Shown piece after piece: positions 20,428 through 25,840 of a stretch of DNA of 34,397 bases. Source of the stretch: a virus; the IMG/VR virus record IMGVR_UViG_3300032295_001045, positions 1 through 34,397 of that record; one strand, 5' to 3'. Below the pieces are notes generated by a model that made no database searches, was not told the origin of the DNA, and saw only the letters and a list, made by a program, of their open reading frames with translations. Numbering within the stretch: position 1 is the first letter of the stretch; every line of letters begins with the position of its first letter. A program made the position numbers and the translations under genes.

Positions 20428-20733
20428 TTATCTAATTTTATTTGAATTTCTCAAAAACGCAAGCCCTGTTTTTGTTATTGCCCACACTCTAGCGTTCCTG
20501 CCGGTTTTAGTCTGTCTGACTTGAGTAGTCAAACGAACATAACGCGGAATTTCAGGTAATCTTCTGCAAATCTGATACTTGTCGAGACAGCAATTCTTTG
20601 CTATTTCGTCAGCCGTTCCGTCTTTCATTTCAGACAAAGCTAACAGAATAGCGCGGTAATGTATCGTTGTTACTGAGCCTATTTTTTTTGCGGCGTCTTT
20701 GCTTGTTTGCGGGTCATTCTTTCTTGCTCTCAT
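20428..20733 (-). CDS. Winged helix-turn-helix DNA-binding protein
   Basis: 101 aa. IHYRAILLALSEMKDGTADEIAKNC...RRLPEI...GRNARVWAITKTG fits a MarR-like wHTH layout. Confidence 0.6.
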   Translation of the reverse strand: MRARKNDPQTSKDAAKKIGSVTTIHYRAILLALSEMKDGTADEIAKNCCLDKYQICRRLPEIPRYVRLTTQVRQTKTGRNARVWAITKTGLAFLRNSNKIR

Positions 20734-20902
20734 CTTCGTCTCCTATGAAAAAATCACACTTTTTGTCGGGAATTAAAAATGCCTCAAAGTCAGAATACAC
20801 TTGATGCCCGACGGGTCGCCCAGGCGATGTAAACCTCAAGCATTTTTCTTTTTGCGCGCACTTTTTTGCTGAACACCTGGCATATTCGTATGAAAGTGTC
20901 AT
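20714..20902 (-). CDS. Hypothetical Cys-rich small protein
   Basis: 62-aa ORF with an ATGA overlap upstream. Contains C-x4-C-x5-C near the N-terminus. Confidence 0.55.
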   Translation of the reverse strand: MTLSYEYARCSAKKCAQKEKCLRFTSPGRPVGHQVYSDFEAFLIPDKKCDFFIGDEDESKKE

Positions 20903-21207
20903 ATCTCACCTTTGCATGGCCATGTTTGTTTGAGTATAAAAGTCACAATTTGCGAAGCGGGAAAATGCCTGATTTCGGGATTTTCTTTCACAAACTTAAT
21001 CACAATATCTTGCGCTTGTCCGTAGGTCACATTAGGGTTTGGGCATTGAATCGTGCCGCGTGTCATGTCTGCAACAGCGCTTATATAACCAAGACCATAC
21101 ACCCTGACGCCCGGCTCTTTGTTTTCGAGTAACGCAAGAAGCTCATTGCCGGTTATTGCGTGCGCTGATGACGAAACAAAAAACAATGCTACAATTAACT
21201 TTTTCAT
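20899..21207 (-). CDS. Secreted protein resembling Rap1a/Tai-family T6SS immunity proteins
   Basis: 102 aa. Signal peptide MKKLIVALFFVSSSAHA, then TGNELL...GYISAVADM...CPNPNVTYGQAQDIVIKFVKENPEIRHFPASQIV...WPC. Confidence 0.5.
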   Translation of the reverse strand: MKKLIVALFFVSSSAHAITGNELLALLENKEPGVRVYGLGYISAVADMTRGTIQCPNPNVTYGQAQDIVIKFVKENPEIRHFPASQIVTFILKQTWPCKGEI

Positions 21208-21386
21208 GCCATTTCCTTAATTGAAGTAAGTAACAATCGAATCCCCGCCGTTGAATCCAGCGGCCTTTTTCCTGTTTCACGTGAAAACTTTCTGCCGTTT
21301 TGGTCAACCCAAAGTCGTCCGTTGATTCTCAGTTTCACGTTTACTTTTTCGTCTAGCTTCTGCAAAATCCCCTCATGCGTGTACAT
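21204..21386 (-). CDS. Hypothetical early protein
   Basis: 60-aa ORF with overlaps on both sides. I checked the frame codon by codon. Confidence 0.55.
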   Translation of the reverse strand: MYTHEGILQKLDEKVNVKLRINGRLWVDQNGRKFSRETGKRPLDSTAGIRLLLTSIKEMA

Positions 21387-23960: not shown

Positions 23961-23987
23961 AAAAAAAAGCCCGGCACTAGGCCGGGC
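23961..23987 (-). terminator. Strong Rho-independent terminator closing the late/lysis operon
   Basis: Minus-strand RNA reads GCCCGGC-cuagu-GCCGGGC followed by U8. Confidence 0.85.
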
Positions 23988-24029
23988 GAATTGCTGGACA
24001 GGCCAGCCAGGAGATGAAACAACGTCAGT

Positions 24030-24566
24030 TTACTTGCTTTGCCCTCTACTGACAAACCAGTAACCGAGTACAGCCGAAGCTTGCCCGGTAAGCCACGCAA
24101 AGGCCTGCATTGCAGCGTCATATCTTTGGTCAATGCTCAAGGTTTCCCATCCCGCGCCTAGTCTCTCGACTAACAGCCAGTTCAGGTATAGCGCCATGCC
24201 TACCAATAACAGCGTCAGGCTAGGGCGTATCATGCGCCGGAAAGCGTCCGTGAGTATTAGCAACCATGCCCAACCACCCGCGCTTTTAACCGTCTCAGCG
24301 TCCAGGTTATCGGCTGCATGCGCTTGTCCGATAGCCGTCATTCTTGCCGATTCTATGCTTCCCTCGGCTTCTGCGACTGCTACCTGCAACCTGCCCTCGG
24401 CCTCGATTTTAGCTAGTTCCCTGTCTTCTTTCCTAAGTTCTAGCTCATGAGCTTGGTCAAGTTTTTTGATCTCAATGTCGGCTTTTTTGTTCAGGAAAGC
24501 GAATATGCCACCAATCAGACTGCCTACCGTGCTCGACCCTAAAATAGCTAAAATTGCGCTTAACAT
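24030..24566 (-). CDS. Holin-like membrane protein (N-terminal span, coiled coil, two C-terminal spans)
   Basis: 178 aa with GGAGG upstream. Hydrophobic segments AILAILGSSTVGSLIGGIFAF, WAWLLILTDAF and LTLLLVGMALYLNWLL. Last gene of the lysis block. Confidence 0.5.
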   Translation of the reverse strand: MLSAILAILGSSTVGSLIGGIFAFLNKKADIEIKKLDQAHELELRKEDRELAKIEAEGRLQVAVAEAEGSIESARMTAIGQAHAADNLDAETVKSAGGWAWLLILTDAFRRMIRPSLTLLLVGMALYLNWLLVERLGAGWETLSIDQRYDAAMQAFAWLTGQASAVLGYWFVSRGQSK

Positions 24567-24985
24567 ATCACCTCCAGTGTAAAGTTTTTCCCGTTTGCCC
24601 AGTCCATCAGTTTTCTAAGTGCAGGCCGTGAAACAAGTCCGGCTCTCTGCATGCGTCCGTCCGGTATCTTGATTGCGCCTAGTCTCTCGCACGGGGCTAT
24701 GCAGCCGTGTAATTGCGTGACCCATCCCTTATTCACATCCCCCGCCAAATTCGACGCATGAATCAAGATATGGTCTCTGCCCGGTACATTTCTCACCCCG
24801 TAAACTCGCCCGAATCGTGGGCTATTGACCAAGGCGCATTCATATGTACCCACCGGAATGCAGCTTACCCGCCTTTGATTGTCTCGCCACGGCAACTCAA
24901 CCGTGTGCAATGTGTTGCCGCCAAACAACAAACGTCCGAACGTGCCTTGCTCTGTACTCTGTCCACGTTTGAGCGTGACTATCAT
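24560..24985 (-). CDS. DUF5675-like protein with a YkuD-like His...His-Gly-Cys motif; candidate endolysin
   Basis: 141 aa counted from the ATG at 24985 (ATGA overlap). GTFGRL...ELPWRDNQRRVSCIPVGTY...SPRFG...VPGRDHILIHASN...LHGCIA. Confidence 0.5.
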   Translation of the reverse strand: MIVTLKRGQSTEQGTFGRLLFGGNTLHTVELPWRDNQRRVSCIPVGTYECALVNSPRFGRVYGVRNVPGRDHILIHASNLAGDVNKGWVTQLHGCIAPCERLGAIKIPDGRMQRAGLVSRPALRKLMDWANGKNFTLEVIC

Positions 24986-25140
24986 CTGTCGATGCAAGAA
25001 GCCACTAGCTTGTATTCTTTGGGCATGTCTTTTAAGAGCTTTGCTTTGGCTAGTTCGCAGGTTTGTTGTGAGCCGTGAACAGTCACTACGGGTTGTGTCA
25101 TAACATTAGCGACAATAAAAAAGCTAATCAAATAGGTCAT
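24982..25140 (-). CDS. Possible small secreted protein (52 aa)
   Basis: Below the track cutoff, with ATGA overlaps at both ends. Hydrophobic N-terminus MTYLISFFIVANVM. No lipobox. Confidence 0.4.
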   Translation of the reverse strand: MTYLISFFIVANVMTQPVVTVHGSQQTCELAKAKLLKDMPKEYKLVASCIDR

Positions 25141-25406
25141 TTTTCCACCTTACCCAATCTTTGCTCAATTTGCACAATTTTAGCGTCAGTGATCTGGTCT
25201 TTAACTTTCAGTTCCATAAGTTCTTTTGACATGGCCTGTTGAGTTTGCATGACTTCTTTCCCCAATCTAACAGCGCTTTCTAGTTGGGTTTTAAGGTCAG
25301 CCGCTTGCCATCCCGCATAAAACAGAGAAGAAGCCACCACCCCAAACCCGCCTATTAGCCAAGTCACCGGAACCTCGTACCTTACCGTTAATCTTTGCTG
25401 TTCCAT
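25137..25406 (-). CDS. Membrane-anchored coiled-coil protein (i-spanin-like topology)
   Basis: 89 aa. One span, WLIGGFGVVASSLFYAGW, followed by a long charged helix. Confidence 0.4.
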   Translation of the reverse strand: MEQQRLTVRYEVPVTWLIGGFGVVASSLFYAGWQAADLKTQLESAVRLGKEVMQTQQAMSKELMELKVKDQITDAKIVQIEQRLGKVEK

Positions 25407-25840
25407 AAGTCCCTTTTCCCACCCAAAGCGTATTCTAAATCAGCAGGACTAGGCACTTCTTTGAAAGTGTAACGCCAGCCGTTTGCATTCAAATCATCTG
25501 CAACCATTTCAGAACAAATCACGCCCCCGGCATTACGGGTACTTTTTCCGAAAAGATGGTAAATAGGGCGCAGTCCGAATAATAGGTAATCAATTATTCC
25601 GTATCTAGCTTCGTCAGTGTCGAGTTTGTGGTCAAGGTATTCAGCCGTAATAGACACGGGTGCTTCGATTAAAACGGTTTTTTTATTGTTGTAAATAGAC
25701 CACAATCTACGGCGTCGGATTAGGTGCATGTCCCAAAATTTCACGCCGTCAGTGAAACCTACGTGATAACAGCTTGACCCGGTGAATATCTTGGTCAGTG
25801 TGCTGCTTGGCTTTTTGCCGTAGATAAAAGCGATCTTCAT
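25388..25840 (-). CDS. Permuted papain-like (YiiX / peptidase C92-type) amidase or peptidase
   Basis: 150 aa. SSCYHVGF (His) precedes GVICSEMVADDL (Cys). This is the same order as E. coli YiiX (YSHTGM ... YCSEVVW) as I recall that sequence. Confidence 0.5.
   Translation of the reverse strand: MKIAFIYGKKPSSTLTKIFTGSSCYHVGFTDGVKFWDMHLIRRRRLWSIYNNKKTVLIEAPVSITAEYLDHKLDTDEARYGIIDYLLFGLRPIYHLFGKSTRNAGGVICSEMVADDLNANGWRYTFKEVPSPADLEYALGGKRDLWNSKD

Follow-up and report, generated by a model that had tools for sequence, protein, structure and literature searches.

A Rap1a-family gene in the replication block of a phage genome encodes a candidate orphan periplasmic immunity protein

Why would an apparently virulent phage carry a gene of a type that bacteria use for immunity against type VI secretion systems (T6SS), with no matching effector gene beside it? 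The question arises from IMG/VR virus record IMGVR_UViG_3300032295_001045, which was analyzed in full (positions 1 to 34,397; this stretch of 34,397 nucleotides is hereafter the window). According to the list of open reading frames (ORFs) and their translations, a coding sequence of the Rap1a/Tai4a family occupies 20899..21207 on the minus strand and encodes 102 amino acids (aa; MKKLIVALFFVSSSAHAITGNELL...KQTWPCKGEI), followed by a TGA stop codon at 20899-20901. The translation is identical to the strings quoted in the original prediction, in which the product had been read as an early-expressed periplasmic protein resembling the Rap1a/Tai immunity proteins of the T6SS. We found that this product has the predicted fold, the export signal, and the cysteine pair of the Rap1a family, and that its gene is fixed in its phage group and stands alone. 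By analogy with its bacterial relatives, it may be an orphan Tai4a-type periplasmic immunity protein against incoming Tae4/Ssp1-type amidases, which would guard the infected cell until lysis; we regard this role as evenly balanced between likely and unlikely.

Family membership, predicted fold and export signal

The Pfam profile of the Rap1a family (PF18602), a search of which had been proposed in the original prediction, matched the window protein over profile positions 1-90 of 90 with E = 2e-15 and 57.5 bits, i.e., at twice the gathering cut-off of 27.7. A word-indexed profile search recovered 117 relatives at E <= 1e-3, all but 2 of which also contain PF18602, and 4403 cluster representatives (50%-identity clusters) were matched in an exhaustive search. 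Four of these representatives (P0118, P0119, P0124, and P0259) are 233-245 aa long, have two matched stretches, and look like tandem-duplicated Rap1a domains. In PHROGs, the window protein matched phrog_3870 ('unknown function') with E = 1.4e-12. No match was found in NCBIfam, and neither the protein nor its neighbors matched a defense-system component in PADLOC.

Comparisons with known structures led to the same family. A phmmer search of PDB sequences returned only Rap1a (3ZFI and 4BI8) and A. tumefaciens Tai4 (AtTai4; 6IJE and 6IJF), both weakly (E = 0.1-0.5). The AlphaFold2 model, for which 69 relatives were used as input, is all-helical with a mean predicted local distance difference test (pLDDT) score of 90.9, and the helices of the mature domain are predicted at residues 20-27, 32-49, 62-75, and 84-95. 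When the model was compared with the PDB by Foldseek, the top seven matches were all Rap1a or AtTai4 entries, with a probability of 1.00, template modeling (TM) scores of 0.68-0.85, and root-mean-square deviations (rmsd) from 1.3 Å; the next match had E = 0.74. Rap1a founds the 'Tai4a' fold family, which is distinct from the main Tai4 fold (PMC3852654), and the folds of the main Tai4 family (Rap2a, Rap1b, Rap2b, EcTai4, and StTai4) were not among the 50 PDB fold matches listed. The window protein is a member of the Rap1a ('Tai4a') family and not of the main Tai4 (Rap2a/EcTai4/StTai4) fold family. The Rap1a/Tai-type identity first proposed from a sequence pattern is borne out by the domain score, by the nearest neighbors in both sequence and fold, and by the retained Cys pair, provided that 'Tai' is understood as Tai4a rather than as the main Tai4 fold.

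Residues 1-17 (MKKLIVALFFVSSSAHA; 21157..21207, minus strand) form a predicted Sec signal peptide, as judged by hydropathy and the AXA rule. In this rule-based reading, MKK is the n-region, LIVALFFV the h-region, and SSSAHA the c-region, and the 9-residue Kyte-Doolittle mean of the h-region reaches up to 3.0. Because Ala is present at both -3 and -1 and inspection of the sequence found no lipobox Cys, cleavage by signal peptidase I is predicted after AHA and before Ile18, which would leave a mature protein of 85 residues and 9.4 kDa. M1, K3, A15, and A17 are each at least 90% conserved in the alignment of 69 relatives, and the 'textbook' Sec signal noted earlier (MKK, a hydrophobic core, and AHA before Ile) is conserved across this clade. 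The mature domain (residues 18-102; 20902..21156, minus strand; isoelectric point [pI] 6.8), which comprises the part seen as helical in the model, is predicted to be located in the periplasm.

Rap1a is a five-helix dimer whose one disulfide (Cys78-Cys122) is required for it to fold, and the dimer plugs the effector Ssp1 at its active site within a heterotetramer (PMC3852654). The window protein has only two cysteines. In the phmmer alignment with 3ZFI/4BI8, Cys55 (codon at 21043..21045, minus strand) aligns with Rap1a Cys78 in the α2-α3 loop, and Cys98 in the C-terminal WPC motif (codon at 20914..20916, minus strand) aligns with Rap1a Cys122. These two residues are conserved in 100% and 97% of the 69 relatives, respectively, and exactly two mature-domain Cys were found in 66/69 proteins of this clade. 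By this correspondence, C55-C98 is a predicted structural disulfide linking the α2-α3 loop to the C-terminus, as Cys78-Cys122 does in Rap1a. The absence of two further Cys had been taken as a departure from the family. A four-Cys variant does exist elsewhere (e.g., at locus L032), but Rap1a itself has one disulfide, and a single Cys pair is no departure. In addition, a surface-loop motif (C-x5-T-x-G-Q-x2-D) is strongly conserved across the phage-borne clade.

The ORF is not a chance reading frame, since an identical protein is encoded on 4 other metagenomic contigs, relatives are numerous, and pairwise ratios of nonsynonymous to synonymous substitution rates (dN/dS) are low (0.05-0.27 overall and 0.05-0.18 within allele types or between close alleles). 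The gene is under purifying selection. When the region was compared with 50,697 phage records by megablast, nothing matched.

Fixation, divergence and distribution of the gene

For the fixation test, relatives of the window phage were retrieved through a replication protein encoded ~1.5 kb away and thus independently of the Rap1a-like protein. A Rap1a-family gene lies between the 60-aa and 62-aa ORFs in all close relatives (identity of 88% or more) with contigs that include this slot (11/11), and no Rap1a-family gene was found within 6 kb in the distant relatives (0/17; 30-50% identity). The gene is fixed in this phage group, and the 60-aa ORF is syntenic with it in all close relatives. No Tae4 family gene was seen next to the Rap1a-like gene, either in the window or in the other phage contexts sampled. 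This orphan status counts against a cognate immunity gene and not against membership in the Rap1a family.

Within this phage group, the Rap1a-like gene is the most divergent of its block. For the Rap1a-like protein, identity between the window and the second major allele group is 42-47%, compared with 55-58% for the 60-aa ORF, 61-70% for a winged-helix protein, 71-77% for the 62-aa ORF, 71-76% for NinB, 79-88% for an HNH protein, 88-98% for a holin-like protein, 90-95% for the replication protein, and 85-97% for a DUF5675 protein. The dN between allele types (0.32-0.51) is also the highest of the block. Positive selection was sought, but dN/dS was below 1 in all comparisons, with dS being saturated between allele types. 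The gene is a divergence hotspot, possibly as a result of allele replacement, and positive selection is not proven. PMC12247911 reports fast divergence of orphan immunity genes, and PMC3852654 envisages an 'arms race' between Tae4 and Tai4; by analogy, the divergence seen here would fit both.

The genes on both sides overlap the Rap1a-like gene. The stop codon of the upstream 60-aa ORF (phrog_1226, unknown function; 21204..21386, minus strand) and the Rap1a-like start overlap within an ATGA, as do the Rap1a-like stop and the start codon of the downstream 62-aa ORF (20714..20902, minus strand). With such overlaps on both sides, the gene is embedded in an operon, and its overlap with the 60-aa ORF makes translational coupling within that operon likely. 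A Shine-Dalgarno-like AAGGA was read at 21214..21218 (minus strand), 6 nt 5' of the ATG. Among the genes of the block, the 60-aa ORF ranks second in divergence; its identity is 57% where that of the Rap1a-like protein is 42-47%, and 87% where the latter is 60%. This suggests that exchange within this phage group moves the 60-aa ORF and the Rap1a-like allele together. A conserved two-gene module with a start-overlapping ORF of ~60 aa was also considered more widely and rejected, as the small proteins are unrelated across three phage lineages. At seven loci with the second major allele type (L045, L046, L047, L051, L052, L018, and L025), ~260-330 extra bases separate the Rap1a-like gene from the 62-aa ORF, leaving room for one more small gene; in the window, these neighbors overlap each other.

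The window covers almost the whole of a small phage genome, and all of its substantial ORFs are on the minus strand. In the genes that were compared, it is identical to an ENA scaffold of 33.5 kb. In the direction of transcription, virion/ejection proteins and a tail fiber are followed by a lysis-like block, an Erf-to-replication block, many small ORFs, and then terminase, portal, and major head protein. The Rap1a-like gene belongs to the third of these (Erf, NinB, HNH protein, 60-aa ORF, Rap1a-like gene, 62-aa ORF, winged-helix protein, and two replication proteins). The upstream edge of this block is marked by a strong terminator-like hairpin after the holin-like gene (23969..23987, minus strand; 7 G-C pairs then T8, a pattern match only). 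Position in an Erf-NinB-HNH-replication block beyond the late/lysis terminator suggests early expression of the Rap1a-like gene. The phage is an uncultured, podovirus-like phage from freshwater and is apparently virulent. A gene for a GNAT-family acetyltransferase (Pfam Acetyltransf_1, E = 2e-12; 32044-32505, minus strand) was found inside its virion/ejection module.

Solitary Rap1a-like homologs were found in several unrelated lineages of phages, most often within early or replication modules. Those at loci L033, L034, and L036 adjoin genes for DNA polymerase A, SNF2 helicase, PD-(D/E)XK, AAA_24/DUF669, or primase-helicase. The homologs at locus L028 and in phage DSL-LC04 (WJZ48091, annotated 'Tai4' by the depositors) are likewise solitary. 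In the temperate, lambdoid Cronobacter phage ENT47670 (L039, NC_019927.1), an unannotated 108-aa ORF at 34292-34618 (minus strand) has a full-length Pfam Rap1a match (60.9 bits). This ORF is antisense between head-morphogenesis and DUF2213 genes, and looks like a moron missed in public annotation. The host species of ENT47670, C. sakazakii, is reported to have an Ssp1-Rap1a pair as well as orphan Rap1a-type genes (PMC3852654). In the virulent N4-like coliphage Bp4 (L041, KJ135004.2), orf70 (62806-63135) lies in the early/middle region and encodes a 109-aa protein in which a Sec signal is present and two Cys have the same placement as in Rap1a. This protein is a marginal match to the hidden Markov model of the clade (E = 6e-4), with no Pfam match at E <= 0.01, and is probably UniProt X2KQV6, which is labeled a Rap1a-domain protein. 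A gp63-like ORF of the lysis cassette, whose identification as the Rap1a-domain protein of Bp4 would have spoken for a part in lysis, was rejected, the only candidate being orf70.

Other phage proteins of this clade are labeled 'Rap1a immunity protein domain-containing protein' in UniProt/UniRef (e.g., UniProt A0A6J5LJN0 and A0A6J7W580), and further examples are present in BFVD. One protein so labeled, UFOVP835_28 (CAB4166321.1, UniRef100_A0A6J5PA87), comes from the same phage group as the window; it has a type-E allele and shares a 90% cluster with the allele of L010-L014, which are loci of this group. The phage-borne Rap1a-domain proteins in databases resemble the window protein in family, size, signal peptide, Cys pair, and occurrence as solitary genes in early regions, but they are only 34-45% identical to it, and their labels come from automatic annotation or from depositors alone. 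In UniProt, these other phage proteins are already assigned to the family automatically, and the window gene represents no new kind of system. Our literature search found no functional study or paper on solitary Rap1a/Tai4a genes in phages.

Proposed role and competing explanations

If the product is an orphan immunity protein, it would be synthesized shortly after infection, along with the products of the recombination and replication genes, exported, and then oxidized in the periplasm, where it would probably dimerize as Rap1a does. It would bind papain-like Tae4/Ssp1-type peptidoglycan amidases delivered by the T6SS of neighboring cells and sterically plug their active site. With the amidase neutralized in this way, the wall of the infected cell would survive until the programmed lysis of the phage itself.

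Several observations weigh against this role. In the alignment with Rap1a, the Ssp1-contact residues are mostly not conserved. Gln84 of Rap1a, which contacts the catalytic His of Ssp1 (PMC3852654), corresponds to Thr61 in the window protein, and Glu90 corresponds to Asp67. Specificity is therefore not readable from the sequence, and such differences are what would be expected for a different specificity. The pI of the mature protein is near neutral (6.8), while such immunity proteins are described as acidic in PMC3852654. As to the fast divergence, it is partly common to neighboring early genes (57% identity for the 60-aa ORF), dN/dS is never > 1, and mosaic recombination alone could explain much of it. 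No integrase or repressor was found among the window ORFs tested, so protection would matter only in the latent period, with its benefit being a supposition. Finally, the hints to the host are weak and point only toward Comamonadaceae, and the use of Tae4/Ssp1-type effectors by the host or its neighbors is not deducible from them. The closest cultured terminases are those of Rhodoferax phage P26218 and HTVC010P-type pelagiphages (44% identity), and a 68%-identical homolog of a 150-aa protein of the window phage is present on a 1-Mb Polaromonas contig. In species-representative genomes, a scan with the signal-peptide pattern gave no confirmed Rap1a-like match and a scan with the mature domain gave one distant match, in a metagenome-assembled genome; neither yielded a host assignment.

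Candidate targets for a periplasmic inhibitor are also encoded by the window phage itself. The lysis-like cassette (23969-25840, minus strand) contains, in order, genes for a 150-aa C92-like protein, an 89-aa protein, a 52-aa protein, a DUF5675 protein, and a 178-aa holin-like protein, and then the terminator hairpin. The 178-aa protein is a holin-like protein of the gene transfer agent type with three transmembrane segments, and the 89-aa protein, which has an N-terminal transmembrane segment and a coiled coil, may be spanin-like. The 150-aa protein (25388-25840, minus strand) has no Pfam or PDB sequence match. Its model (pLDDT 79.8) has a C92/YiiX fold, and the only structures it resembles are 3KW0 and 2IF6, which are permuted papain-like C92/YiiX proteins (probability 0.4-0.9). 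Tae4/Ssp1 structures were not among its fold matches, even at E <= 10. With sequence searches being empty and the fold being a permuted C92/YiiX one, a Tae4-like nature of this enzyme was rejected. The first slot of the cassette is mosaic in relatives, where it holds the 150-aa protein, a Pfam C92 protein (143-146 aa), or both (as at locus L010). The DUF5675 protein (24560-24997, minus strand; 80.9 bits in Pfam) overlaps the gene for the holin-like protein, and given this overlap, it may be the endolysin. This family is labeled 'unknown function' in both Pfam and PHROGs, and the protein carries LIH-x16-HGC-I, which is close to the L,D-transpeptidase/YkuD motif. This motif is quoted as HXX14-17[S/T]HGCh in 10.1101/2020.02.18.954545, and the T6SS effector family Tae5/Tlde1 is defined by it as well. 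Outside the cassette, a 507-aa protein encoded among ejection-type virion proteins (32515-34038, minus strand) matched phrog_5107 ('amidase') with E = 4e-118, and it has no Pfam domain or PDB sequence match. This label may be unreliable, or the protein may be a wall hydrolase carried by the virion; for want of Pfam or PDB support, it was set aside as a hydrolase target.

The alleles of the Rap1a-like gene do not follow these enzymes. At locus L020, the DUF5675 protein is 97% and the 150-aa C92-like enzyme 91% identical to those of the window, yet the Rap1a-like protein is only 45% identical. At loci L005 and L006, by contrast, the Rap1a-like protein is 94% identical, and no homolog of the 150-aa enzyme was detectable, with a Pfam C92 protein in that slot. 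No co-variation between the Rap1a-like allele and the phage's own wall enzymes was seen in these comparisons, and this uncoupling suggests a target external to the phage.

These patterns bear on a suggestion of the original prediction, namely that the Rap1a-like protein keeps the 150-aa C92-like peptidase or the DUF5675 enzyme inactive in the periplasm until lysis. Both are cysteine-type candidates of the same genome. The 150-aa protein is predicted to be papain-like (3KW0 being the best match, at a probability of 0.9), as are the known targets of Rap1a, which are CHAP/NlpC-P60 amidases (PMC3852654), and the DUF5675 protein has an H-x16-HGC motif of the YkuD kind. However, neither enzyme has a signal peptide, such that the holin would have to act before a periplasmic inhibitor could meet them, and by then inhibition would be counter-productive. 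In addition, the allele type varies independently of both enzymes, Tae4 and Ssp1 are missing from the fold matches of the 150-aa enzyme, and both enzymes are absent from DSL-LC04 (where the endolysin is an M15A peptidase) and ENT47670, which do carry Rap1a-like genes. Restraint of the phage's own wall enzymes is thus disfavored, and we consider it very improbable. The target may instead be the wall-degrading enzyme of incoming virions, of the same phage or of competitors, which the protein would inhibit early and in the periplasm to block genome entry. The logic would be that of T4 Spackle, a small, helical, Sec-exported early protein that inhibits a peptidoglycan hydrolase (PMC7677548). It would agree with the location of Rap1a-like genes in early/replication modules of several apparently virulent phages, and the window phage has ejection-type virion proteins and the PHROG-labeled 'amidase'. 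This superinfection exclusion is quite unlikely in our judgment. Spackle was among neither the PDB fold matches listed nor the PDB sequence matches, and the 507-aa 'amidase' lacks Pfam or PDB support. A self-excluding inhibitor should track its target, whereas the Rap1a-like allele is uncoupled from the candidate wall enzymes of its phage. Moreover, the carriers share no wall hydrolase, their endolysins being of the M15A (DSL-LC04), GH108 (Bp4), and lambdoid (ENT47670) types, and in ENT47670, a temperate phage, the gene is a moron in antisense orientation, for which lysogenic conversion is a better fit.

A broader version of this idea is that the Rap1a fold was recruited repeatedly by virulent phages as an early, Spackle-like guard of the cell wall, which would inhibit papain-like wall enzymes of competing phages or tailocins and not T6SS effectors. 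We hold this version to be improbable; if true, a single protein family would connect the immunity of bacteria to the T6SS with exclusion between phages. The fold may also have been reused for a different task, such as modulating a host NlpC/P60-type endopeptidase or another envelope protein, or neutralizing a toxin unrelated to the T6SS (a bacteriocin or a contact-dependent toxin). This is unlikely, in our view, though the very large size of the family (4403 50%-identity clusters), the commonness of orphan members (PMC3852654), and the contact residues that differ from those of Rap1a are in its favor. The conserved loop motif C-x5-T-x-G-Q-x2-D could likewise reflect a conserved target that is not an effector, but it may be purely structural, e.g., a helix N-cap beside the disulfide. 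Every characterized member of the fold family (Rap1a and AtTai4) is an immunity protein of the Tae4 family, and no specific alternative partner is indicated by any data.

Relation to known systems and biological implications

Among characterized proteins, the closest counterpart is Rap1a (SMA2260) of Serratia marcescens, the cognate immunity protein to the T6SS effector Ssp1 and founder of the 'Tai4a' fold family. It matches the window protein best in structure (3ZFI and 4BI8; TM 0.83-0.85, rmsd 1.3-2.0 Å), belongs to the same Pfam family, and is similarly Sec-exported, ~100 aa long, and all-alpha, with Cys78-Cys122 corresponding to C55-C98. Sequence identity is only ~20%, and the Ssp1-contact residues mostly differ. 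Also, the Rap1a gene adjoins that of its effector inside a T6SS cluster, whereas the window gene is solitary in a phage early operon. The Tai4 protein of A. tumefaciens (6IJE and 6IJF) has the same fold (probability 1.00, TM ~0.7), 23-26% identity, a C-terminal 'FPC', and the loop Cys, but it is chromosomal and paired with a Tae4 effector, inhibition of which was shown structurally, while the window gene is unpaired. In being solitary and without an adjacent effector, the window gene resembles the orphan Rap1a-type genes of bacteria (e.g., ESA_03939 of Cronobacter sakazakii), which have been read as a defense against non-self Tae4 effectors (PMC3852654). Those genes are chromosomal and near T6SS loci, while the window gene is phage-borne and in an operon with replication genes.

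Two phage systems are comparable in part. T4 Spackle (gp61.3) is similar in logic, as an inhibitor of a peptidoglycan hydrolase that a virulent phage makes early and exports by Sec as a small helical periplasmic protein (PMC7677548). It has no detectable fold or sequence relationship to the window protein among the PDB matches listed, and it targets the tail lysozyme of its own phage, whereas the window allele does not track the phage's own enzymes. Prophage-borne clusters of auxiliary T6SS toxin and immunity genes, such as those of phiRSY1-like Ralstonia phages (PMC11481896), are also T6SS-related cargo carried by phages. However, these are complete vgrG-toxin-immunity modules in temperate phages, and the window phage, which is apparently virulent, has a single immunity-type gene on its own.

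Comparative material on the proposed role is provided by alleles that have diverged naturally (42-100% identity) while the phage backbones around them are otherwise near-identical, and cultured, tractable cases are available in the ENT47670 moron and, marginally, in orf70 of coliphage Bp4. The ENT47670 ORF is missing from public annotation, and phrog_3870 is listed as 'unknown function' in PHROGs. If the window protein is an orphan immunity protein, then apparently virulent phages would protect the host cell from the T6SS of neighboring cells during the latent period. This would be a three-way interaction among phage, host, and competitor bacteria, of which we found no study.

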